A stretch of DNA of 64,000 nucleotides from the IMG/VR virus record IMGVR_UViG_3300035180_002574, positions 1 through 64,000 of that record; one strand, written 5' to 3'. The stretch is from a virus. Shown here in pieces: positions 937 to 23,607 of this stretch (position 1 is its first letter; each line of letters opens with the position of its first letter). The notes beneath the pieces were generated by a model. The model worked only from the letters and a program-made list of their open reading frames with translations. It was not told the DNA's origin and did not search any database. A program made the translations under genes and the position numbers.

Positions 937-1075
937 GCCCGTCTGAATCTCAGAATCCTCCCACGCATAACTATAGGCACGAAAGTCTTATTCACCTTGA
1001 CACAACCAACAATCGTGCCAAGAAAAGACTTCAACTCAGAAGTTACTGTGATGGTTATTTTATTGGAACCTCTGC

Positions 1076-4245: not shown

Positions 4246-4509
4246 CTATCGCCTCTTTAGCAGTTGCTCTGGTATCCAAGCCCCGCGGGGACCACGTACG
4301 CAAGTGTCTATATACTTGCGCTTGTTCTTCTTGATCTTGCGAGCCGCGCTTTTCTTTTCCGTTGGTTGCGCCCCATGTGGCATCTTGTCGATCGATTGTC
4401 GATCGATGGAAGAGACGTGCGGATGCCGGCAACTCATCGTTTGCCGTCCTAGACACTGAACCATGGTGGGTTCGCATACATGAAGGAACCCAAAACCAAA
4501 TTTACTCAA
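4246..4509 (-). CDS. Small basic hypothetical protein (may start at ATG 4383, just after the repeat motif)
   Basis: ORF track; motif pair at 4385-4409 precedes ATG 4383. Confidence 0.4.
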   Translation of the reverse strand: MSKFGFGFLHVCEPTMVQCLGRQTMSCRHPHVSSIDRQSIDKMPHGAQPTEKKSAARKIKKNKRKYIDTCVRGPRGAWIPEQLLKRR

Positions 4510-4931
4510 TCATGTTATTGGCTCGGAGACTGAAGTGACTGCGCATTCCATGCTCATTCACGCCAATAATCAAGTGATCGAGCAACTGAAGATCCACATG
4601 CCTTGCCGCTTGCGCAACCCTCCGGGTAAGGATAATGTCGTTGCCCGAGGGATGGTTGTGCGCGAGAATGAACCCGCGCGCACCCATTAGCAAAATTGGG
4701 CGAAGCACACCACGCAGCAGACTCCGAACCAATGGCGACAATGGTAACGCCCAGGGCTCGATTCCTGGCATCCAATCCAATGGCGAGCAAATGCTCGCGA
4801 TCGGGCGTACCAATCAGCTCATGCACCAATGCCGCTGATGCTTCGGAGTCGTGCAGGTTCGCGCTTGGAATCATAACAGAACCATCACGAACCAGTTGGA
4901 CCTTCTGAATCGGAACGCGATATCCGCTCAT
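4502..4931 (-). pseudogene. radC: RadC-like JAB-domain gene, frameshifted and internally deleted
   Basis: DREHLLAIGLDARNR in one frame; LAHNHPSG and LLDHLIIG in another; the usual PSxxD segment is missing. Confidence 0.85.
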
Positions 4932-4937
4932 GTGCCC

Positions 4938-5078
4938 TCACTTGAGTTTGAGAATCGCCTCGCGCATCTTCGGATCCATGTGAGGATTCGTTTGCGCCGC
5001 TTCCTTCATGGCTTCCAATGCCTTCTTGCGATTGGCATTGATATTCTCGATGATTGCCCTGCGCTCGTCTGCGGTCAT
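4938..5078 (-). CDS. 46-aa helical hypothetical protein
   Basis: Manual translation MTADERRAIIENINANRKKALE; AGAGG RBS right after the motif copy at 5088. Confidence 0.55.
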   Translation of the reverse strand: MTADERRAIIENINANRKKALEAMKEAAQTNPHMDPKMREAILKLK

Positions 5079-5321
5079 TCAACCTCTTTGTCGATCGATG
5101 GGAACCGGATATGCCACCTTGCGATTGCTCTTATAGCACGCAAGTTGCGTGTCGCTATTCCAACCCGTGCGGGTGAATAGCTCTCCGCTCACGTCCACCA
5201 CTTCGGGCAACGACTTGTAATGGTCGTAATCCCTACACTCCACTTCGATGATGTTCTCGCCTTCGATGCTGACGTAAGACAACACCGCGATGAGTTGCGT
5301 GGCTTTGGCTTGCATGTTCAT
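5079..5321 (-). CDS. Hypothetical protein
   Basis: ORF track; ATGA overlap with the upstream gene. Confidence 0.65.
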   Translation of the reverse strand: MNMQAKATQLIAVLSYVSIEGENIIEVECRDYDHYKSLPEVVDVSGELFTRTGWNSDTQLACYKSNRKVAYPVPIDRQRG

Positions 5322-5647
5322 GCCCCCGGCTGATCGATCGATGGGCTCGATGCCATCCGATTCTTGGCGATATCCGCAAGCTGACCCACGTACTTGAGTG
5401 ACATGGTTCTAGCGCGAGCGAGATGCCGTCCGCTCAGATGCTTTCCTTCCAAGATCCATCGGGCATAATACGAACCCAAGCTCGCATCCGCGCCCGAGAA
5501 TCCTCGACCATTGGAATGTCTGGTGGTTTTCGTGGCTTGCTCATCCGCGGTTTGACACGCATAGATGGCAAGGATCGCACGCTCCACCGCATCGTCCCGT
5601 TGCATCAACAACCATTGAATGTATGCAGGATCGCTCTTGTCAATCAT
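5318..5647 (-). CDS. Conserved-type phage hypothetical protein (QTADEQ...NGRGFSGADA)
   Basis: Recognisable motif pattern of a common large-phage hypothetical family; GAGG RBS. Confidence 0.7.
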   Translation of the reverse strand: MIDKSDPAYIQWLLMQRDDAVERAILAIYACQTADEQATKTTRHSNGRGFSGADASLGSYYARWILEGKHLSGRHLARARTMSLKYVGQLADIAKNRMASSPSIDQPGA

Positions 5648-5734
5648 GCTCTCACCCTCGCTTGTCGATCGATGGGTCCGTTCGTAGCAGGGATTCGCTT
5701 TGCATTCACCAGAGGTTACTAAAGCGTTTCCCAG

Positions 5735-5812
5735 ATCGCCTAGTAGGAATCGAACCTACCTCGTCTCCATGCTCTCAGACATGGGCAGCCACCCAGGGTA
5801 TTCTCTAGACGA
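5735..5812 (-). ncRNA. tRNA-like RNA 1 (intact acceptor and T arms; non-canonical D and anticodon arms)
   Basis: Acceptor TCGTCTA/TAGGCGA; T arm GTAGG-TTCGATT-CCTAC; stem CCATG/CATGG with an 8-nt loop. Confidence 0.7.
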
Positions 5813-5880
5813 AACTCCCCGTTCACAACACTCAAGGTTTGTCACGAAATCAAGCACGGGGACACACTCCGAAATCGCGG

Positions 5881-5952
5881 ATCGCCTAGCAGGACTCGAA
5901 CCTGCACCTACCTACGCCAATGCGCTCGCTCTACCAGTTGAGCTATAGGCGA
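5881..5952 (-). ncRNA. tRNA-like RNA 2 (canonical acceptor, D and T arms; anticodon stem does not pair canonically)
   Basis: TCGCCTA-TA-GCTC-AACTGGTA-GAGC...GCAGG-TTCGAGT-CCTGC-TAGGCGA. Confidence 0.8.
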
Positions 5953-6214
5953 AACATCCCCTATGGGGAATCAGCTATGCTGTCTCCGTTCAACCACGGA
6001 TGGGCGCGAATCCTTATGGGCGATTCATTGCTGCCCTGGATTCGCCAGCGAATCACACCCGCCTCTACTTATACTTTGCTTTGTATAAGGAACCGTTCGG
6101 TTCGTTTTGCTTGCTTTTCAAGAGAGGCTTGTCGATCGATGGGAACCGGGGAACCGACCGAAGCCGGCTCCCCAATCCCCTAACCGATCACTGAACGAAT
6201 CTCGCTTCGCTCGA

Positions 6215-6625
6215 TTACTTCTTGGCAGCCTTCTCCGCCTCGATGCGGGCACGAAGACCCACACCGCCGCCCTTGCCCTTGCCGATGAGGAACTTCGAGC
6301 TGGGACGCTCCTGCGTCCCGTCCTCCGCGATCTCGCCCTGCGCATTGTCGCGAATGTAGCTGTGGATGCGATCCGAGAGAACCTTGTGGTTCTCGGGCTG
6401 TGCATTCATCTTGACCAGCGTCATCGTGATGAGCGCCGGAACATTCATCTTGACCAGCGCCGGATATGCATCAAAGACCGCATCCACCGCATTCGCGATG
6501 GTCTGAGTCTCCACCTCACGCTCCGAGGCATACTTGACCAGCTCCGCCTCAAACCGAGAACAGGTCTCCGCGAAGTTGAGAGAACCGTCCGCATACCGAA
6601 CCAGGAAGGGAACCACATTGCTCAT
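6215..6625 (-). CDS. Hypothetical protein, first gene after a promoter module
   Basis: ORF track; AAGG RBS; strongly GC3-biased codons. Confidence 0.75.
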   Translation of the reverse strand: MSNVVPFLVRYADGSLNFAETCSRFEAELVKYASEREVETQTIANAVDAVFDAYPALVKMNVPALITMTLVKMNAQPENHKVLSDRIHSYIRDNAQGEIAEDGTQERPSSKFLIGKGKGGGVGLRARIEAEKAAKK

Positions 6626-7219
6626 TGTTATACCTTACTTTCCGAATGCCCTTTGGGGCTTCTATTACCACGAACCATTGGAACCTTTCGGGTTCCAAGA
6701 TACTTCCCATTCCAACCCCGGAAACCGGGAGAAGGTGAGTCGTATCTAACGTATCCAAGCTGCTTGGCACCTTCAATGATGCCCCGCCTTGTCGATCGAT
6801 GGAATGCGTCAACTGCCCGCTTTGTCTTCCCAAGATGCCAGAGAGCGTTGTCGCCCTCCCAAGTTTCAAGTCTCTTGTCGATCGATGGAGCCTTGCCGCC
6901 AACGTTGCGCCGCGTCATTCGCTCACCGTCGCATTCCCGCGCCGCATTGTAGATCGATGGAATCCATCGACTTGCATCGCGCCGCGCGCCTTCACGCTCG
7001 CTTTGCTCCCTTCGCCCGCATTGTCGATCGATGGACATTCATCGTCAACGGAATCGGGAATCGAGCGAACCGTCAACCAGCGTTCACAACGCGCACCGCT
7101 TGCGTTTCCGCTACACCGTGTCGCGTCGCTTGCTGCGATTGTGTCTCATATTGTCGATCGATGGTAACCCGGCGCCCGTTGCATGTAAGGTATCGCGCGC
7201 GCGCAAAAGGATTACCCTC

Positions 7220-7240
7220 TATTAGCACGTCCCGCGCCAC
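7220..7240 (-). promoter_or_regulatory. sigma54-type -24/-12 promoter P1
   Basis: TGGCGCGGGACGTGCTAATA, GG-N10-GC. Confidence 0.7.
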
Positions 7241-7287
7241 GCCACATTACAATCTCACTGGAATCATAAACCTGGTATGTTGTTCGC

Positions 7288-7308
7288 TATTAGCACGTTC
7301 CGTGCCAA
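7288..7308 (-). promoter_or_regulatory. sigma54-type promoter P2
   Basis: TTGGCACGGAACGTGCTAATA. Confidence 0.8.
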
Positions 7309-7409
7309 GCACGATTAGCAAAACCCACATGCACCTACATCCGGGTAGAAAAATACAATATCCCTATAAAAACCCATAGGGGAGGGAAATGGGTAAATGC
7401 GTCCGGCGC

Positions 7410-7439
7410 AAAAATCCGCCCCGGAAAGGGGTGGATTTT
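7410..7439 (-). terminator. Intrinsic terminator hairpin
   Basis: AAAATCCACCCC-TTTCC-GGGGCGGATTTTT on the minus strand, downstream of the gene ending at 7551. Confidence 0.75.
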
Positions 7440-7471
7440 GCGTTATCCGTTGGTATGTTTGGGATTGGGTC

Positions 7472-7498
7472 CCCCACCAGCCATCATGGCTGATGGGG
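7472..7498. other. Strong hairpin in the 3' region of the 7551 gene
   Basis: CCCCA-CCAGCCAT-C-ATGGCTGA-TGGGG. Confidence 0.55.
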
Positions 7499-7550
7499 AA
7501 TGAACCGCGCGTGAATCCAAGCGTCCGAAAACGATTCGGATGCCGCCACC

Positions 7551-7976
7551 CTACGTGGGAAGGGTCCAGATACCGTTGCGCTTCCTAACACCAAGCGTAC
7601 CAGCGATGGTGTCGATGCTTTTCGCCAAGCCGACCGAAGTCTTGTAACCAAAGGATTCGCGCATTGCCGTCACTTGCTCGATGACGTCGAGGCGACTCAT
7701 GGCGCCTTTGGATAGGACTTGACCCACACAGGCGCGAATGGAACCGCCATTGAATGGACGCCCACGAGGGCGACTGGATTCGGTCTCGAACAACTCCACT
7801 TCATCAGAGTTGATCTTTTCGGCAAGCTCATCCAGCTTTGCCTTCTCTTCCTCGCTCAGATTTTCCTGAATCTCCTCGATGCGCTTGTCGATCGACGGGC
7901 GCATGATCGTGTGCCCGTGTCGAAGGAGGGCGAGAACGAGGGAATCGCTGGGATTATCGAGGACGATGACTCGCAC
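7551..7976 (-). CDS. Hypothetical protein, possible C-terminal winged-helix domain
   Basis: ORF track; GGAG RBS; helical C-terminus ending in a beta-hairpin (VRKRNGIWTL). Confidence 0.65.
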   Translation of the reverse strand: MRVIVLDNPSDSLVLALLRHGHTIMRPSIDKRIEEIQENLSEEEKAKLDELAEKINSDEVELFETESSRPRGRPFNGGSIRACVGQVLSKGAMSRLDVIEQVTAMRESFGYKTSVGLAKSIDTIAGTLGVRKRNGIWTLPT

Positions 7977-8037
7977 GTCTCCACCTCTTTACCTTGCTGG
8001 CAGAGTGACCAATCACGAGAACTCTCATGCGCATTAG

Positions 8038-8117
8038 TTCGTCTAATGGGAATCGAACCCATATTTCCGATTGTGATGTCGGCGTCCTTCCGCAAGGCTC
8101 TCTTAGACGATAGACGA
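8038..8117 (-). ncRNA. tRNA-like RNA 3 (enlarged D loop; 4-bp anticodon stem with an 8-nt loop)
   Basis: TCGTCTA/TAGACGA; ATGGG-TTCGATT-CCCAT; CCGA-CATCACAA-TCGG. Confidence 0.75.
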
Positions 8118-8140
8118 AACTCAGATATTCCGAACTTGTA

Positions 8141-8560
8141 TCAGACGGAGATCTTCTCCGTCTTTCGCCACTTTTCGAGCGCGTTCTTGGTGGCGCGCAC
8201 CGTCGCGGTCGAACCATGACCACGCCGGGTGACGAATCCCCCGCGAGCCAGCTTGGTGCAGGCGCTCGACACGTCGGATTCACTGTAGGCGTTCTTGAAC
8301 CGACCGTTCAAGTGATCGGTGAGATCCTGCGTGCTCACACCCTCGGCTCCGAATCGGAGAACGGCGAGCAGGGTCAGCTCGCATCGCTTCTTGAGCCCCA
8401 GGCTCACCTCGATGCGGTCACCCCTGCGAACCAGCTTGGAATCATGGCGATTGAACGTGACGCTCTTGCGGAAACGGATGCTCATGCGGAACCTTCGCTT
8501 TCCGACCCCACAACATGGGGTCAAGGGGTCATTCCAGAACTCTTCGATTGCTTGCCTCAT
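8141..8560 (-). CDS. Winged-helix DNA-binding protein
   Basis: LLAVLRFGAEGVSTQDLTDHL...SESDVSSACTKLARGGFVTRR is a typical wHTH pattern. Confidence 0.75.
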   Translation of the reverse strand: MRQAIEEFWNDPLTPCCGVGKRRFRMSIRFRKSVTFNRHDSKLVRRGDRIEVSLGLKKRCELTLLAVLRFGAEGVSTQDLTDHLNGRFKNAYSESDVSSACTKLARGGFVTRRGHGSTATVRATKNALEKWRKTEKISV

Positions 8561-8638
8561 GCTTGTCGATCGATGGAACCGAGGACCGGGCTCGATTGCC
8601 CGGTCCCCAATCCCAATCAGATCACGGAACGAACATGT

Positions 8639-8845
8639 TCAGGGCTTACCCGCCCATGCAAGAATGGCGGATAGCGTATCCATGCTCACCTGCACAGATT
8701 GACCATTCTGCTCGATGCGGAGAACCTTTGCGTTCTTCTGAGTCGAAAGGGGATGAGGATTGCTCATCACCACTTCGACCATCGGAGTGTCCTCGTTCCC
8801 GCCCGTGAACAAACACTGCTCGCCCAGCGGCTTGAAAACCTGCAT
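8639..8845 (-). CDS. Hypothetical protein
   Basis: ORF track; GGAG RBS. Confidence 0.6.
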   Translation of the reverse strand: MQVFKPLGEQCLFTGGNEDTPMVEVVMSNPHPLSTQKNAKVLRIEQNGQSVQVSMDTLSAILAWAGKP

Positions 8846-8933
8846 TGTCAGACTCCGAGTTTGAAGGTTGTAAACGTGGATAGGGGCGATGTTGATCGAT
8901 GGGAACCTTGACGATCACTTACTCGATTCTTGG

Positions 8934-9119
8934 TCAATCACCATCCGCATCCATGGATGCTTCGATGGCATCACGCTCGGCGGCGTGCCGATCGCCCTTG
9001 CGCTCCTTGTGCGGACCACCAGACTTGCATCTGCGGAGATCTTCGTAGGTATCGAAGCTGCGCCCCTTGATCTCTTTCACCTTGGAATTACCGCCGATCT
9101 TTTTGAACGACTTACCCAT
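8934..9119 (-). CDS. Small basic hypothetical protein
   Basis: ORF track; GAGG RBS. Confidence 0.6.
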   Translation of the reverse strand: MGKSFKKIGGNSKVKEIKGRSFDTYEDLRRCKSGGPHKERKGDRHAAERDAIEASMDADGD

Positions 9120-9155
9120 GACCCTCGTTCCTCCGCTTGTCGATTCGCAACTCTT

Positions 9156-9386
9156 CTACCCATTCGTAACGATGTGCCTCGTCATTCCAGACGACAAGGA
9201 GACGGGAACCCAGGTTCCCTTGACGGGCTTGCGCAGGTTGGCGAACATGGGCGGAAGGGGCTTGAGAATCGCAAACCCTCGGCAATAGGCGTGCTGCGAG
9301 TGCGGAGCCGCATTGGACTTCTGTCCGCACTTGGAACACACGCACGGTTCCACCTTGACGCCCGCCGACTTCTTGCTCTTCGCCAT
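9156..9386 (-). CDS. Small Cys/His-rich (zinc-finger-like) protein
   Basis: Start reassigned to ATG 9386 after motif plus GAGG; CVCSKC...H..C. Confidence 0.6.
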   Translation of the reverse strand: MAKSKKSAGVKVEPCVCSKCGQKSNAAPHSQHAYCRGFAILKPLPPMFANLRKPVKGTWVPVSLSSGMTRHIVTNG

Positions 9387-9515
9387 CTTGAACCTCTTGT
9401 CGATTGATGGATCACGCTTGGCGCGATGATTACCATTATAACTGTCGAACCACACCTTTCCATACCAAAACCTTTTCGGTATGGAATATGAGTTATGAGT
9501 TTCGTTCGCGGGCGT

Positions 9516-10148
9516 TCAGCCGCGCGAAAACTTGGCGGCGTCTTGCTTGACCTTGACTCCGAACCCCAAGCCACCACTGGTGCCAACCTTGACGGTCTTG
9601 TGGACCGCCATGCGGGGAGCCCGCAGAAGTCGCTTCATGGACTCATCGCGTGAGACGATTCGCACGGGATTCAGCTTCTCGGGACAGAGAAGCCAAGTGA
9701 TGCTTCCGTGCCAATTGGGCGCGCCGTCAACGAGCTGACGGTCGACCCACCGCTCCGCATCTTGGGGCATGTCGAAGTCGGCAATCAACTCTTTCATGTC
9801 ACCAGAATCGGTGACATGAAACTGGACTCTGCCCAGCTCGTCGAGAATCTGAGCAACGTATGCTTTGGGCTCCTTCTCTTCCTTGGGGAGAAGGAATCGC
9901 TCAGCCTTAGATTGATCCTGAAGCATGATATGAGACCAGACCGCAGACTGAATCTCAGTCAAGGCAGGAGTCGGCATCAGAGCACCACTGTCCACCATGT
10001 GAACAATGGGCGACGTCAGAGGAGCCAACTCCCCGGTCGTGAGGTAAGCGCGATGCGCTTCGATGAAGCCGATTGCCGACTTCGCGGTGGACAACTTGCG
10101 CAAGAACCCCTTAGGGGTCATCTTGCGTTCTTTCTTGGCTTCCGTCAT
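9516..10148 (-). CDS. Hypothetical protein, first gene after a promoter module
   Basis: Start reassigned to ATG 10148 after motif 10163 plus GGAG. Confidence 0.75.
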   Translation of the reverse strand: MTEAKKERKMTPKGFLRKLSTAKSAIGFIEAHRAYLTTGELAPLTSPIVHMVDSGALMPTPALTEIQSAVWSHIMLQDQSKAERFLLPKEEKEPKAYVAQILDELGRVQFHVTDSGDMKELIADFDMPQDAERWVDRQLVDGAPNWHGSITWLLCPEKLNPVRIVSRDESMKRLLRAPRMAVHKTVKVGTSGGLGFGVKVKQDAAKFSRG

Positions 10149-10344
10149 AGCTTCGCTCCACCTTGCCGATCGATGGAATGCCGTCAAACCATTCGACGGC
10201 GCATCCCGTTTCGCTTTCCTGCTTTCGGTGCGCATTGTCGATCGATGGAACCACACCGCGTCTCACAATGTCGCACAATGAATCACGCCCCGTCGTTTCG
10301 CGTTTTCGCTCGGGGCATTCTCGCCACCGCTTGTCGATCGATGG

Positions 10345-10421
10345 AAGGCATCGCCGCTTGTAAGGCATCGCCGCTTGTAAGGCATCGCCGCTTGTAAGGC
10401 ATCGCCGCTTGTAAGGCATCC
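10345..10421. repeat. Tandem 17-mer (AAGGCATCGCCGCTTGT) x4 plus a partial copy
   Basis: Units start at 10345, 10362, 10379 and 10396. Confidence 0.95.
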
Positions 10422-10461
10422 TACATTATCCTACCTTGGTATCTATAAACTTGCGGATCTC

Positions 10462-10482
10462 TATTAGCAAACTTGGTGCCAA
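10462..10482 (-). promoter_or_regulatory. sigma54-type promoter P3
   Basis: TTGGCACCAAGTTTGCTAATA. Confidence 0.8.
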
Positions 10483-10531
10483 CTTCCCCTGCGCTCAATA
10501 TCCTACATTGTGTGTGAATGTAATAAAATGG

Positions 10532-10568
10532 ATGACTTGTCATCCCAAGCATGACTTGTCATCCCAAG
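10532..10568. repeat. 19-nt tandem duplication ATGACTTGTCATCCCAAG(C)
   Basis: Two adjacent copies. Confidence 0.9.
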
Positions 10569-10619
10569 TGAGATATGTCGGGGCGAGTAATCAAAGGTGG
10601 AAGGTGATCCGCGGAGCGT

Positions 10620-10640
10620 TATTAGCAAACGCCGTGCCAC
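10620..10640 (-). promoter_or_regulatory. sigma54-type promoter P4
   Basis: GTGGCACGGCGTTTGCTAATA, near-perfect consensus. Confidence 0.85.
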
Positions 10641-10744
10641 CTACCTGCACACATAAAAACGCAGGGTGTCGTACCTTTCCTTACTTTTAGGGTCTTTCTT
10701 ACCTTTCCCTTCCCTTCCGCCCCGCTTGCACTTGCCCAAGACAT

Positions 10745-10789
10745 AGCCTCGGCGGCTCCTAGATCATTGCTAGCGAAACCGCCGAGGCT
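10745..10789. other. 11-bp GC-rich inverted repeat (hairpin without a U-tract)
   Basis: AGCCTCGGCGG...CCGCCGAGGCT. Confidence 0.6.
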
Positions 10790-10971
10790 CCCACGCCTTT
10801 CTCAGTCACATAATATATATGTTCCCCTCCGCGCCCACGTGCCAATCGGGAGCAAAAGAGAGGCGACCGCTAGGGCGTCCTTTGCGGGCATCACCCGCAC
10901 GTCAATACGGTGGATCTTGCATTATTGCCCCGCAATATCTAGGTGAGGTTACTTGTCGATCGATGGGATGG

Positions 10972-11298
10972 CTAGTTGAGCTTGCTGCCCAGGAAGGGGA
11001 CGGGATCCGACGACGGATGCGCCTGCGCCGTGGAGACGAGCTTGTAGACGCGCACGGCGTCGGCGACGCACTCACCCTTGATGATCTTGATCTCGACTTC
11101 GTTCCTGGCGTTGCTGATGGCGGCGCTGTAGGCGGCGCGGATGTTCGGGGGCAACTGCGGCTCGAACTTGTCGAAGACGCTGGCGACAAGTTCGAGACGC
11201 CGCTCCTCGAACGCGTTCATGAGCGGACGCAACTCGGAGCCCGCCTGTTGGCACGCTTCGTAGATTTCCTTGAGAACCTTGGAGACGTTCATGTTCAT
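10972..11298 (-). CDS. Hypothetical protein
   Basis: Start reassigned to ATG 11298 (GGAGG RBS after motif 11313). Confidence 0.7.
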   Translation of the reverse strand: MNMNVSKVLKEIYEACQQAGSELRPLMNAFEERRLELVASVFDKFEPQLPPNIRAAYSAAISNARNEVEIKIIKGECVADAVRVYKLVSTAQAHPSSDPVPFLGSKLN

Positions 11299-11332
11299 AC
11301 CTCCGAACTTCTGTGTCGATCGCTGGTAACTT

Positions 11333-11584
11333 CTAGAGGAGAACGGTCTCCTGGTTGGGGTGCGCGGGACTGGATGAATAGACCTTATCCAGACGATAGC
11401 CGTGCGCCTCGCACCACTTCTCGATAGACTGGAACGTGACCACGTAACCATGGAAGGGCTCGTCACCCTTGAACAGCAGAACCTCGTGACGCATGAGTTT
11501 GGGCGCGCCTCCCTTGGGCGCCGCCATAAACTCGGTTTCGGCGTCGAAGATGGAACGGAACGTGATTTCGACCATTGATGACAC
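11333..11584 (-). CDS. Hypothetical protein
   Basis: ORF track; GAGGT RBS. Confidence 0.7.
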   Translation of the reverse strand: MSSMVEITFRSIFDAETEFMAAPKGGAPKLMRHEVLLFKGDEPFHGYVVTFQSIEKWCEAHGYRLDKVYSSSPAHPNQETVLL

Positions 11585-11612
11585 CTCTTACAACACCCCA
11601 CTATCTCATGCG

Positions 11613-11873
11613 CTAGACGTCCTTGAGAGGCGCTTGATACTGGTCCTTGTTCCACTTGCGCAGGGACGCGTCTTCGATGGCTTCCTTCGACTCCTCGATG
11701 CCTGCGCCGGTGCGGTCGCGAAACTCCTTGATGCGCTGGATCTTGTTCTCGTAGACGGGAAACCTGCTACCCTTGGCGCAGGCATCGCGCGGCGGGGGAC
11801 CGAGCTTGTCGTCCTTGACCAGCTCGTCTGCGATAGCATCCCATTCGCTCCTGTCGATGAACATCTTGAACAT
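11613..11873 (-). CDS. Ribosomal protein L7/L12 C-terminal-domain-like protein
   Basis: NKIQRIKEFRDRTGAGIEESKEAIE matches the K..IK..R..TG.GL.EAK..VE helix-turn-helix of the bL12 CTD; the EF-Ts N-terminal domain is similar. Confidence 0.6.
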   Translation of the reverse strand: MFKMFIDRSEWDAIADELVKDDKLGPPPRDACAKGSRFPVYENKIQRIKEFRDRTGAGIEESKEAIEDASLRKWNKDQYQAPLKDV

Positions 11874-11921
11874 TAGTACCTCTTACTGTGTTGTCGATCG
11901 GTTGTCGATCGATGGAAGACT

Positions 11922-12131
11922 TTAGAAGACCGCCCGCTCCTCCACCTTGTAGGAGGTGATGACGACCTCGACCTTGGCGTCACCCACCACGCTGCCACCC
12001 TTGGCATGGTTCTTGGTCATGGCGAAGTGAGTGGCGGCGCCAATCGAGGCGAAGCCCTTGATGTCACGCCGAGTCAACTTGCCCGTGGCGGTATCGAACG
12101 TGAGGGCGGTAACGACGAACTTGGTGCCCAT
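11922..12131 (-). CDS. Hypothetical protein
   Basis: Start reassigned to ATG 12131 (GGAGG RBS). Confidence 0.7.
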   Translation of the reverse strand: MGTKFVVTALTFDTATGKLTRRDIKGFASIGAATHFAMTKNHAKGGSVVGDAKVEVVITSYKVEERAVF

Positions 12132-12397
12132 GTATGTTACCTCCGACTTGAGGCTTGACTTCAATAGAAGGATGGCAGCTTTCACGCCTTAGCTGCCCTG
12201 TAGCGCCTTTGCGACCCGGACGTTTTCCGTCAGTGCGCTATCAGCATCGCTCACATTCTCGCCTTTCATTGTCGATCGATGGCAGCCGTCGCTTTTTTTG
12301 TTTTCGTTCCCTGCCCTCGCCTTTCATTGTCGATCGATGGTGGACCGCCGCCGCACGTTCCTTATTATACGCGGCGACGACCACACCACACGCCCTT

Positions 12398-12418
12398 TAT
12401 TAGCAACGCGCGTACCAA
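12398..12418 (-). promoter_or_regulatory. sigma54-type promoter P5
   Basis: TTGGTACGCGCGTTGCTAATA. Confidence 0.75.
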
Positions 12419-12525
12419 CCACAATGTAATCAGGAATATATCGGGGGAAACGTGCCAGATAAGCGTCGGGCGCCCTAAACCACCTTCACTCACCGTGTGG
12501 ACAGATGCTTACATGTAGGATAAAC

Positions 12526-12564
12526 GACGAAAGCCCGCTCGCTTTTCAGCGGCGGGCTTTCGTC
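12526..12564 (-). terminator. Terminator-like hairpin
   Basis: 13-bp stem GACGAAAGCCCGC/GCGGGCTTTCGTC just after the stop at 12573. Confidence 0.75.
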
Positions 12565-12572
12565 CGTCAGTA

Positions 12573-13217
12573 TCAGTAGGCGTTGCTTGCGTCGTCGAGC
12601 TGGCGCGCCTGCGCCAGCAGCTTGTTCGCGAGCGTCACGTTACCCTCCTTGTCCGCCTTGCTGGCGGCGTCGAGCAGGACGCGCTGCTTCGCCTTCATGT
12701 CGGCGACCAGGCGCCGAGCGGGCGCGGGCATACCGGCAACGTAACCGGCAACCGTGGGCGAGAGACGCGGCGCCTTCCCCTCGCCCGGGTTTGGATCGAG
12801 GGTGAGACGGGCGCGGCGAGTCGCCGCCGCGAGCGCGGTCCCCAGGTCGTCGACCTTGAAGCCGCAGCACTGGAGCAGAAGAATGGTGTCGTGACGCACT
12901 TCGTGCGGATTCTTGAACGTGACGGGCTTCCGCTTCAGGTTGACAGCGGGCGCCCCGGTCACTGGATCGATGGCTTGACGAACGCCAACCATCGACGCGA
13001 GCCTGAGAAACTCCACCGCGTCGTTCGTCTCGTTCAAATCGAGCACCACGCCCACCGTCTCATGCGGAATGACCTTGGCGCTCGCCGCGCCGGCAACGCG
13101 CTCCACCTTGGGAGCCTTGACCGCCTTGACCGTTCGCGACGTATCGTCCAGCTTCGGGTCTTCGACCAAGCTGGAAACGGTGCCAGTCGCATCGGAGAGG
13201 AGAGAGGAAAAGTCCAT
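12573..13217 (-). CDS. Ala-rich hypothetical protein, first gene of the GC-rich block
   Basis: ORF track; GAGG RBS; very high GC3. Confidence 0.75.
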   Translation of the reverse strand: MDFSSLLSDATGTVSSLVEDPKLDDTSRTVKAVKAPKVERVAGAASAKVIPHETVGVVLDLNETNDAVEFLRLASMVGVRQAIDPVTGAPAVNLKRKPVTFKNPHEVRHDTILLLQCCGFKVDDLGTALAAATRRARLTLDPNPGEGKAPRLSPTVAGYVAGMPAPARRLVADMKAKQRVLLDAASKADKEGNVTLANKLLAQARQLDDASNAY

Positions 13218-13462
13218 TGAAAACCTCTTAGGGTTTGGGTTCGGGCGGAGCTTGCGCCCCGCGATGAATTCCCTTGCCTTTCGCGCCGTCCGCCAGTAGT
13301 AGGGGCGAGAACTTTGTCTCGCTGCACCTTGGAATCACCTTGCCGATCGATGGTACCTGGTTTCCCCCTCCCACTTCGGTTCGTTCCCTTTTTCGTTCCC
13401 TGTCTCAGCCTTCCATTGCCGATCGATGGGAGACCGGATTCCAGTCGGGACGGAACCGGCGC

Positions 13463-13483
13463 TATTAGCACACCTTATGCCAG
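13463..13483 (-). promoter_or_regulatory. sigma54-type promoter P6
   Basis: CTGGCATAAGGTGTGCTAATA. Confidence 0.75.
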
Positions 13484-13528
13484 CGGTAGGGTGATGTAGG
13501 ATAGGCTCCACGACACTCGCTCGACCGC

Positions 13529-13549
13529 TATTAGCAACTACCATGCCAC
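13529..13549 (-). promoter_or_regulatory. sigma54-type promoter P7
   Basis: GTGGCATGGTAGTTGCTAATA. Confidence 0.8.
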
Positions 13550-13561
13550 CTACATTGTAGG
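13549..13561. promoter_or_regulatory. Dyad box CCTACATTGTAGG abutting the -24 element of P7
   Basis: Perfect 6-bp inverted repeat; half-sites recur in the other modules. Confidence 0.55.
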
Positions 13562-14039
13562 CTAAAAAGACCGAAACCACAGATGCCAAACATTCCAATC
13601 GGAAAATAAAAATCTTATACTACATGTAAGATAAAAAATTACTTTATACTTCATGTAGTGTGATGTAATAATAAAAAGTATTTATACGACATCGTAGGAG
13701 CTATAAGAGAAGGTGGTAGAGGTAACCAATAAGCGCCCAATGGGCGAAAAGGTAGGCGATGTGGGTGGAGGTGGTAGATGTGTGCCTGGCAAACAGGAGC
13801 ATCTGTGGCTTATATTGATTAAAAGTTACTAAAAAACCATAAAACCACCACCCACCTACCTCTGCACACCATTTCAAATCGCCCCTTATACCTCTAGAAA
13901 GTTAGTCAATAGAACCCAATTAGAGTCCCTATAATGATTCAAATGGGACTTATTACCACTTCTCCCCACCAAATGACACCTTTATAATTATGTTTTTTAA
14001 CCAAACATCTTGTGTAATTAGAAATAATTTGCTTTTTAG

Positions 14040-15744
14040 GTAAAAATATTAAAAATATTAATCGTTTTATTTTCCGAATTAGTTTAGAGAATATGATATT
14101 GAGGCGTCCACATTTTTGAGATGATTGAAAGGCATAAGTTAGTGAGGCTTATCTGGTTTAGTGAAGCTTATCTGGTTCTTAGGTTGAAGAGAAGTTAAAC
14201 GGAATATTAATTTGTACGGTATTTTGGAAATGCATAACATATTTTATTTTACAATATTTACAATTGATCCAGATGCCATAGACATTATCGGTGATATTTT
14301 GTAGTTAGGGAGCCAGATTATAATTGTTCAGGTTTCATGAGAATATGAGATAAGTTTTCATTTTATGTTTAAGTTCTGGGGGTGTCATATTAAGAAATTT
14401 ATTAGCGTGATCATTATCTTTACCGAAGAAGGAGATTTTGTATAACCGAGATCTTCAGCCAGAGAGATGTTGGATATGGTGATAATATATTCCACGAATC
14501 ATTTGGGTCATCAATTTTGTGGGGGAGAGGGGTTACAATTGTAGCAATTGATAATCATGGGGCGGGTGGCGTCATGCAAGGATTTTGGCAATAAAGATTT
14601 TTGCAATACGGGAAGCCAGCAAGGAACTTTCTTTAGGTAAGTTATAAATTTTATTAATATGAATTTTATTAAGGGGATATGATCGAGGGCTATATTATGG
14701 AGGTTGTAGAAAAGCGATGGAGAGGCAGGAGCCATCTTGTTCTCCGATGGAGATGGCTAACCATTGATTTGTGTTTTCAATTGATTTGTGTTTTCATGGG
14801 ATATTGGACCTGACAATATAGACGGCTTCGAGATCTTCATTGCGGGGCATTTGGAATATCATTTAGGCAGAACCAGCGAGGAATAGATTTGGGAATCGAG
14901 GAAGATCATATGAATGGGAGGAGTGGACAGGAGATTGAAGGAGATTGAAGGAGATTGAGGCGGGAGATATCGAGGGATTGTTTTTGAAAATTAAGACGAA
15001 TTTCGATAACATTTGATTTGGTTGTCATTTATTGGGGAGATGAGGTGGGGGTTTCCACATTTTTGGCAATGGAGCATTTGATTTTATTGCAAAGCCGGCA
15101 TTGAATATTCATGAGGGCGCGAGATAAGTTTTGATTTTTGTGGATTTTATCCGGGGACCAAGTTCGGGCGTTGTGTTAGTTTAACTTTATTATTGGGCGG
15201 GGACCATAGGAGAGCGGAGGGGGTTTAAGCAAATTGATAAATTGGTCCCGGGGGTTTTGGTTCCATAATAAACGACGATCTTTTGAAAAGATCGGAGGGT
15301 GGATTGATGATTTGTGGTGTCGCAAGTATATTTGGCAATAATAATAAATGATTTCCCATGTAATCAGTCTTGCAGATTGTGGAATTATTTTATTACAAAA
15401 CCAGCAGGTGATTTGCTTGGGCGGAGCATTTAGATCATAGGAAAGGGATTAATTTCTTTAATTTATTGGAAATTTGATCTTTATTGAGATGGGGGCAAGA
15501 TTATTTTTTCCGATTTGATTATGTGTGGAGATAATTAGCTGATTGGAATGCGGGAGAAATCCGAGGTATAAATTTTTGAAATAAAAATCGGATATTTGTT
15601 CGGGATGATTGCGATCATAGAAATAGGCATTATAGGCAGAGGAGCAGTCATTGCATATTGGCATGGAGAATGATTGGTGGCATCTCCATGTTGATTGCGG
15701 ACCAAATTAATTTCTTTATTGCAGAGCCAACAAGCGGGAATCAT
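14040..15744 (-). pseudogene. Chain of decayed CxxC / C-terminal-FS family genes
   Basis: Relic ends KHKMKTYLIFS* (14335), LLPFI* (14906), TKIKTYLAPS* (15109), NKLKKLIPFL* (15435); relic starts CYNCN, CRLCNK, CWFCNK, CWLCNK; linked by ATGA overlaps. Confidence 0.75.
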
Positions 15745-22431: not shown

Positions 22432-23532
22432 TTATGCAAGTTTATCGGTTCCAGTTTTCAAATATGAAAGAAGAAAAGATTGTATGTTTCCGTCTAATAC
22501 CGAATCAGAATCTCGTGATTCCCAATCCGTCCTATGATCTTTAACCAGCTTATACGGCATCAATGTATATGTTCTAATATGATTTCCAAAAGAAATATCA
22601 GACATACTATCTATATATTTGTCTTTTTCTGTCTGTCTTTTTTTCATCTCTAATTCATAGAGTTTAGATTTTAGCATTTTAATAGCCATTTTTCTATTAA
22701 CATGCTGGTCTCTTTCGGATCTAGAATTAATTACAATTCCTGTGGGAATATGTTTCAACCTAACTGCGGACTCAACCTTATTAACATTTTGCCCGCCGGC
22801 GCCAGAAGCACGCATGGTTGAGATTTCTAAATCTTTTTCATTAATTTGAATATCGATGGTATCTTCAATATCTGGGGTTACTGCCACAGCGGCGAATGAG
22901 GTATGTCTGGCATCACCGGCATTAAATGGAGAATTTCTAATTAGACGATGAACTCCTGCTTCGCCTTTTAAGAAACCATAAGCATATGGTCCCTCAATTC
23001 TAATTGATACGGAATCCGTACAAATAGCACTATGTTCTTCTGAAGGCTTGGTGTCTAATATCTCTATCTTAAAGTCATTTGAGCCTGCCCAACGACAATA
23101 CATACGCAGCAATATAGTTACCCAATTAGCAGCTTCTAATCCACCAGCCCCAGCATTAATTGATAAAATAGCTGGATTATCATCGTTCGGTCCAGACATC
23201 ATCTGTCTGAATTCAAAGTCGGATAGATCTTTATGAGCCTTTTCTACCAGGTGAGAGATGGCTGCAATCTCATCTGGAACTACTTCTAACCCTTCTTTAT
23301 AGAAAGATACTTCATCATCAAACGTTTGCAATTTATGCAAAAGAGTGGCTAATTTTTGTCGCTCCTTCATTAAGGCAGAAGCCTTTTGAGGATCCGACCA
23401 CGCATCAGGTTTACTGACAAGGTGATCTATTTCCTCTACTCGTAATTGATATGTTTTAACTGGAATCATCTTTTTGAGAGAAACTAATTTCTCTACACAG
23501 GATTCAATCAGTTGATGCAAATTTGTAGACAT
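22432..23532 (-). CDS. prfB: Peptide chain release factor 2
   Basis: GAGGQNVNK (GGQ), SPF discriminator (RNSPFN), GEAGVHRL; a single uninterrupted ORF. Confidence 0.95.
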
Positions 23533-23607
23533 GATGCACTTTTCCTCCTCGCACAACATAACAATTGCTAAAAATTTGTCAAGGCGCCGGCAAGGATATA
23601 AATTATT

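Follow-up and report, generated by a model that had tools for sequence, protein, structure and literature searches.

A sigma-54 promoter stays silent unless it is opened by an activator that is driven by ATP, and we know of almost no phage that uses promoters of this type. The Pseudomonas phage YuA is a siphovirus of 58 kb. One sigma-54-like promoter is reported for it (Ceyssens et al. 2008, cited by PMC10914365), and the literature searched yielded no further phage promoter of this kind. A distant sigma-54-like protein has been predicted for a Pectobacterium phage (PMC7693777). Small non-essential genes in the hyperplastic regions of T4-type phages are bordered by promoter-early stem-loop cassettes (PeSLs), regulatory modules in which a promoter is combined with a stem-loop terminator (Arbiol et al. 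2010, PMC2839356). We analyzed the first 64 kb (here called the window) of the 181,177-bp IMG/VR virus record IMGVR_UViG_3300035180_002574, which is rated 42% complete and derives from a jumbo phage with a genome of roughly 450 kb. An island of small orphan genes with raised G+C content (GC) in the window carries seven elements, P1 to P7, that we consider, at a rough probability of 0.55, to be promoters for the sigma-54 holoenzyme of the host; they would head four transcription units and would need an activator from outside the set of proteins encoded by the phage.

The locus resembles YuA in that a phage promoter region is assigned to the sigma-54 of the host. It differs in number and distribution: one such promoter is reported for YuA, whereas the island described here begins with seven, and the battery is conserved in a whole family of phages of 450 kb. 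As in the PeSLs, the putative promoters are combined with stem-loops, three of their four groups being closely preceded by a hairpin, but PeSLs carry strong sigma-70-type early promoters where the present sites have sigma-54-type -24/-12 boxes (PMC2839356).

The general form of the seven sites is TGGCAY-N5-KTGCTAATA. They are listed here with their scores against a matrix built from the sites themselves.

13529..13548, minus strand: P1, TGGCAT-GGTAG-TTGCTAATA, 32.0 bits, predicted start site near 13522.
13463..13482, minus strand: P2, TGGCAT-AAGGT-GTGCTAATA, 31.4 bits, 66 bp downstream of P1.
12398..12417, minus strand: P3, TGGTAC-GCGCG-TTGCTAATA, 28.3 bits, the single site ahead of the run starting at 12131.
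10620..10639, minus strand: P4, TGGCAC-GGCGT-TTGCTAATA, 32.1 bits, an exact match to TGGCAC-N5-TTGCT.
10462..10481, minus strand: P5, TGGCAC-CAAGT-TTGCTAATA, 30.9 bits, 158 bp downstream of P4 and ahead of the run starting at 10148.
7288..7307 (7273..7307 with a second arm), minus strand: P6, TGGCAC-GGAAC-GTGCTAATA.
7220..7239, minus strand: P7, TGGCGC-GGGAC-GTGCTAATA, 31.3 bits, 68 bp downstream of P6.

A search of the window for GG-N10-GCTAATA returned eight matches against 0.51 expected, and the largest count in shuffled sequence was three. Seven of the eight fall within 7220-13547, all on the minus strand (7220, 7288, 10462, 10620, 12398, 13463 and 13529), which is the strand of every gene between ~4 and 13.5 kb; in the remainder of the 181-kb record, matches are single and scattered. 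When the site-built matrix was run over the record and a 16-kb extension (~200 kb in all), the seven sites scored 28-32 bits and the next best match 14.5. These searches bear out the initial annotation, which had placed seven sites with exact GG-N10-GC spacing and a shared extended -12 element at these positions on the coding strand, and had proposed a matrix scan of the whole genome against shuffled controls; GCTAATA is present in all seven. The converse count was also made. On the coding strand of the GC-rich block, TGG stands at the right distance from GCTAATA in 7/7 cases, as against 4/42 in the AT-rich remainder. This difference, and the near invariance of bases that the search pattern did not specify, show that the two-box layout is not a product of site selection.

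Four further sites, of the form TGGCAY-N5-TTGCTAATAGAG and arranged in two tandem pairs, were found in L195, a diverged relative represented by a 2.9-kb contig from an unrelated run. Over the eleven sites (seven from the window and four from L195), the bases outside the search pattern are conserved as T before GG (11/11), C (10/11), A (10/11), Y (11/11) and T before GC (11/11), and the consensus reads T-GG-C-A-Y-G ... K-T-GC-T-AATAG-m-G. GG at -24 and GC at -12 are separated by 10 nt at all seven window sites and all four L195 sites, the spacing being fixed and the spacer sequence variable. The genes behind the conserved elements differ between the window and L195. Boxes and spacing remain constant while the N5 spacer of L195 is different, which argues for selection on the two-box element. 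The boxes differ from each other systematically, TGG as against KTG, and since the difference recurs at every site they are not homogenized repeats. We take the sites to be real, co-oriented cis-elements that are conserved under selection.

From 720 validated sigma-54 promoters, the consensus TGGCAC-N5-7-TTGCT has been derived (PMC12316311). Each window site has 0-2 mismatches to TGGCAC-N5-TTGCW, and the conserved positions all agree with the sigma-54 consensus, including the difference between the TGG and KTG boxes. Among validated bacterial promoters, flaA of V. cholerae reads TGGCAC-GGAAG-TTGCTAATA, the final element being identical to that of the phage sites, and pilA and mbhA of M. xanthus share TGCTAAT with them. 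The likeness to these promoters extends to the invariant GG and GC 10 nt apart, the form TGGCAY-N5-KTGCT and a position upstream of, and co-oriented with, genes. The phage sites differ from them in lying on a genome without an encoded sigma-54 or activator, in their tandem pairs and in the near invariance of positions -11 to -4. As a sequence match, the sites fit the sigma-54 -24/-12 consensus better than that of any other promoter type. A sigma-70 reading was tried and rejected: a consensus scan found 7 such sites in the block where 7.3 are expected by chance, none of them heading a unit; a -10 box would end in a T that TAATAG does not have; and the distance of one helical turn between the boxes is incompatible with the -35/-10 geometry of the sigma-70 family.

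All seven sites are intergenic, on the coding strand and 240-590 nt ahead of the first start codons. The gene map places them in the four long gaps that had been singled out earlier, with P1 and P2 ahead of the run starting at 13217, P3 ahead of 12131, P4 and P5 ahead of 10148, and P6 and P7 ahead of 6625. The predicted start site of P2, near 13456, is ~240 nt from the ATG at 13217, and a leader of ~590 nt separates P7 from the ATG at 6625. A 13-bp palindrome, CCTACAATGTAGG, adjoins the -24 box of P1. The leading genes and the hairpins are as follows.

12573..13217, minus strand: first island gene, 214 aa, of no known family, downstream of P1 and P2.
12519..12574, minus strand: strong, terminator-like hairpin with a weak U tract, between the 214-aa gene, whose stop codon it follows directly, and P3 (-36.3 kcal/mol, z -7.4).
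10738..10799, minus strand: strong hairpin upstream of P4 and P5 (-35.6 kcal/mol, z -4.2).
9516..10148, minus strand: 210-aa gene heading the run behind P4 and P5, 41% identical to a homologue in the island of the complete relative G005.
7404..7449, minus strand: hairpin with a U run upstream of P6 and P7 (-23.3 kcal/mol, z -2.8).
6215..6625, minus strand: 136-aa gene heading the run behind P6 and P7.

About 40 bp upstream of P3, at 12440-12460 on the minus strand, lies TGGCACGTTTCCCCCGATATAT, a decayed promoter copy in which the TGGCAC -24 box is kept and the -12 box is lost. The unit of L195 that matches the P3 unit has two sites, both intact.

The element extends beyond the window and L195. 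Relatives of the portal protein, 75-89% identical, occur in many viral contigs, including genomes of 447-481 kb that are rated complete; three complete relatives were used here (G003, G004 and G005). TGGYAY-N5-KTGCW has 9-20 matches in each of the three, as against 1-3 for a control pattern, and most are clustered at the head of the island. Nearly every element in these genomes is a face-to-face pair of ~35 bp, TGGYAY-N5-TTGCA-N3-TGCAA-N5-RTRCCA. When second arms were scored, most sites of the relatives reached 9-11 of 11 positions. P6 scored 10/11 and is the only window site with a second arm (the plus strand at 7273-7288 reads TGGTATGTTGTTCGCT), giving it the face-to-face layout of the relatives. 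The other ten sites of the window and L195 scored 4-7/11. The gene-facing arm alone therefore survives at 10 of these 11 sites, and 6 of the 7 in the window are single-armed. The single-armed sites and the face-to-face pairs are best regarded as natural variants of one element, and the conserved TAATAG is probably a vestige of the palindrome centre. A hairpin reading of the pairs was rejected: the N5 spacers of the two arms are complementary at 16/70 positions, the chance level, and the symmetry therefore resides in the recognized boxes.

Which polymerase might read the sites was addressed through the proteins encoded by the family. Domain searches of the record and the three complete relatives detected neither Sigma54_DBD nor a beta domain of RNA polymerase. 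A search for a T7-type polymerase gave no match, and the same search found nothing in control genomes either. A gene of the sigma-70 family lies in the window at 63400-64050 on the minus strand (region 2 match, 209-aa open frame) and may encode a late sigma factor of the T4 gp55 type. Since neither type of polymerase was found and one sigma-70-family gene was, the phage family seems to rely on the polymerase of its host.

From the sequence we infer the identity of the polymerase, the need for an activator and the timing. The initial annotation had gone further, to a block that would be expressed first and might gate infection on the physiological state of the host. In the mechanism we propose, the sigma-54 RNA polymerase of the host would bind TGGCAY-N5-KTGC, and an AAA+ enhancer-binding protein not encoded by the phage would open the AT-rich TAATA just downstream of the -12 GC. 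Transcription would start 11-13 nt after that GC, and the transcript would reach the genes after a leader of 240-590 nt in which a second motif, YCCATCGATCGACAA, occurs two to five times. Occupancy would be higher where the sites form tandem pairs. ATGTAGG sites near the promoters, together with conserved blocks upstream, would be candidate sites for the activator.

Several results weigh against the sites being sigma-54 promoters. Profile searches for Sigma54_activat (PF00158) found no match in the whole record or the three complete relatives, which extends the earlier observation that no activator gene is visible. No classical enhancer is recognizable at -80 to -150 upstream of the sites. Ordinary sigma-54 promoters show less conservation at positions -11 to -4 (TAATAGmG) than these sites do. 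The boxes of the complete relatives face each other although the genes there share one orientation; such pairs are not explained by a simple promoter model and would also fit a symmetric DNA-binding protein. The proposal of sigma-54-type promoters holds as far as the sites are real, match the consensus and stand where sigma-70-like sites occur at chance level, but a plain promoter as the sole model leaves the facing pairs of the relatives unexplained.

The reading that survives best besides the promoter is that the boxes are the binding site of another protein and merely resemble those of sigma-54. It could be a DNA-binding protein of phage or host, or a specificity factor of the host polymerase, acting as activator, repressor or insulator at the heads of the units. 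We regard this as possible, though clearly less probable than a promoter. A symmetric element of ~35 bp is typical of dimeric or tetrameric binders, the chance-level complementarity of the spacers points to recognition as the basis of the symmetry, and the unusual conservation of the flanking TAATAGmG and the absence of an activator encoded by the family would fit as well. The island proteins are all orphans, and one of them could be such a factor. However, 10 of the 11 sites in the window and L195 have lost the second arm and kept both gene-facing boxes, a change that would disable a symmetric binder and not a promoter. The conserved positions, moreover, all coincide with the sigma-54 consensus down to the GG-versus-TG difference between the boxes, and the identical TTGCTAATA occurs in validated sigma-54 promoters. 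We favor the promoter over a symmetric binding site because this lineage keeps just the arm that faces the genes.

An unlikely alternative is that sigma-54 holoenzyme binds the sites without promoter action. Closed complexes would serve as decoys that titrate the sigma-54 of the host, or as roadblocks or insulators, and the genes would be transcribed from elsewhere, for example from sigma-70-like sites in the AT-rich region upstream or from the per-gene CCCAT-type motif. Two sigma-70-like sites do lie upstream of the island on the minus strand (14388-14360 and 14016-13987), and a separate motif stands before nearly every gene. The lack of an activator gene in the record and the three complete relatives would be accounted for, and facing pairs in the relatives cannot both fire. 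Against this, the sites number only seven, share the orientation of the genes and closely follow hairpins where units begin, which is the placement of promoters, and they would make a poor sink; and the arm that is retained is the one facing the genes.

It is similarly doubtful, as a variant of the sigma-54 promoter reading, that this family of 450-480-kb phages runs the head of the island on host sigma-54 without encoding an AAA+ activator, opening the core of GC, an AT-rich pentamer and GC (GCTAATAGC here, still read by P1, P2 and P6, and GCATATTGC in the relatives) by an unrecognized phage factor that is not of the AAA+ type, or with no activator at all. TAATAG, ATGTAGG and CCATCGATCGACAA are candidate targets of such a putative phage DNA-binding factor. 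If true, opening of sigma-54 promoters without an AAA+ activator would be a new activation route for a form of polymerase thought to depend strictly on ATP-driven remodeling.

That the sites are an artefact, either a chance pattern or a contig joining a GC-rich element to an unrelated AT-rich phage, can be discounted: GC jumps sharply at 13.55 kb, two other assemblies are interrupted at 14445 and no similarity between proteins connects the flanks of the junction, but synteny with the complete G005 and G004 rules out a chimera, L195 shows the AT-to-GC transition too, genes on either side of the junction use a GAGGT ribosome-binding site, and chance is ruled out by the shuffles, the matrix scan and the converse GCTAATA count.

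A phage that heads a gene block with sigma-54 promoters must borrow the signaling of its host, bring an activator of its own or use bound polymerase for something other than transcription, and each of these three routes would be new for phage biology. The natural variation between single-armed and face-to-face elements makes the question testable with short synthetic DNA.

The island itself was compared across the family. In the window, GC drops sharply from 55-60% to 35% at 13.55 kb. In G005 (481 kb), homologues of the window genes from 29 down to 18.7 kb, including release factor 2 (RF2), lie in order at 400.6-417.7 kb, followed by a cluster of sigma-54-like boxes at 419.8-424.4 kb and then by an island of 52-61% GC with homologues of the 214-aa and 210-aa genes. 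G004 is arranged in the same way. As the gene order of both matches that of the window, we regard the AT/GC junction at 13.55 kb as genuine. Island GC is raised in every relative and its absolute level varies (41-44% in G004, 52-61% in G005); the GC-raised island is a real trait of the whole family. In L195 the transition is kept as well, the second motif is present and the first gene is 54% identical to the 214-aa gene; homologues of the latter are 75% identical in L205 and 32% identical in G005. No known family was found in Pfam, PHROGs or Atlas for the 19 island proteins scanned.

A 33.4-kb contig from another sample is identical to the window from 14445 to 1 and continues for ~19 kb beyond the window start. 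About 16 kb of this continuation was retrieved, and its GC drifts down to 0.40-0.47; this contig, too, speaks against a chimera. The sequence of two independent assemblies is interrupted after 14445 and continues from 14569 and 14582, which suggests that the ~125 bp at 14446-14568 vary within the population or are difficult to assemble.

The promoters are accompanied by further motifs.

4385..13430, minus strand: second motif YCCATCGATCGACAA, 26 co-oriented copies, with two to five in the leader of each promoter group; most start codons also have a copy 10-45 nt upstream.
13549-13561, 12508-12520, 10497-10512 and 7330-7346 of the window, 444 and 2266 of L195, and ~424310 of G005: ATGTAGG-type motif.
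13549..13900, minus strand: AT-rich non-coding region upstream of P1, with ATGTAGG/CCTACAT sites and two blocks similar to L195.

All 26 copies of the second motif are on the minus strand and none lies outside 4385-13430. Its core, CCCAT, is family-wide and its tail specific to the lineage: in G005 it reads CTCCCATTCACGG, with ~40 copies over 21.5 kb that usually stand 12-35 nt ahead of a start codon, and the forms in G004 and G003 are TCCCATCTGATAACGG and CCCATCGAGG, respectively. This per-gene motif could be a promoter for a phage factor, a signal for RNA processing or translation, or an operator. A 17-bp tandem repeat, GGCATCGCCGCTTGTAA, of ~4.6 copies lies at 10340-10420, where it separates P5 from the second motif's first copy.

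Every promoter region has ATGTAGG(T), sometimes as the palindromic CCTACA-N-TGTAGG, at a distance of 8-34 nt on the upstream side of the -24 box, with reversed copies further upstream. The exact ATGTAGG copies in the first 11 kb of the island all (6/6) lie inside promoter regions, and the motif may be the site of a regulator. Two non-coding blocks within 13600-13870 are ~80-90% identical to L195, as against 54% for the adjacent protein, and one of them contains an inverted repeat of TACATGTA-type sites. Because it holds both the ATGTAGG/CCTACAT sites and the blocks conserved in L195, the region 13549..13900 is a candidate enhancer or control region. Taken together, what appears to set this case apart is the single-armed and co-oriented form of the sites, their tandem pairs, the TAATAG extension, their restriction to four unit heads and their embedding in a second system of per-gene motifs.

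When a sequence collection was scanned, the extended promoter pattern gave at least 120 single matches and the second motif 61. The pattern combining the two gave no viral match and one chance match in a metagenome, in an ankyrin gene. Two similar sites on the coding strand of the record, TGGCACG-N4-GTTGGT...TGTCAA, lie at 998-1020 (minus strand) and ~1.8 kb past the window start, and at least one is intergenic; they may represent a variant of the -24/-12 element in which GC at -12 is replaced by GG.

The initial annotation had also pointed to a GC-rich host such as a myxobacterium. That expectation was not upheld, since 92% of the contig has 35% GC and the raised GC is a property of the island, at a level that varies among relatives. 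An assignment to Polyangiaceae through the top matches of the phage release factor was rejected: few RF2 genes stood among the many release factor 1 genes sampled, and RF2 identity was 40-49% across the sampled phylum. The TGCTAAT extension was compared with a control pattern in 41 genomes of one phylum, that of the myxobacteria, and gave 8 matches as against 1, too weak to assign a host. TGCTAAT is present in two of three validated M. xanthus promoters, which is a small hint toward a myxobacterial host. The GAGGT ribosome-binding sites on both sides of the junction argue against a typical host from the Bacteroidota. A search for publications that mention the samples of origin gave none.

Several other genes are of interest. 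The island contains a tRNA gene at 5879-5952 (minus strand) with an odd anticodon loop (Rfam, 48.5 bits) and a weak tRNA-like relic at 8037-8110, and the extension past the window start adds two further tRNAs, for Asn and Leu. The RF2 gene (22432-23559, minus strand) encodes the SPF and GGQ motifs in a single open frame without the usual programmed frameshift, and is kept in G004 and G005. The large terminase, at 171782-174685 of the record (minus strand), has 967 aa. A search with it for a cultured relative returned only matches to an insert and no close phage. The matching residues, ~187-541, resemble genes annotated as helicase, terminase or exonuclease in unrelated phages and may represent an intein or an inserted domain.

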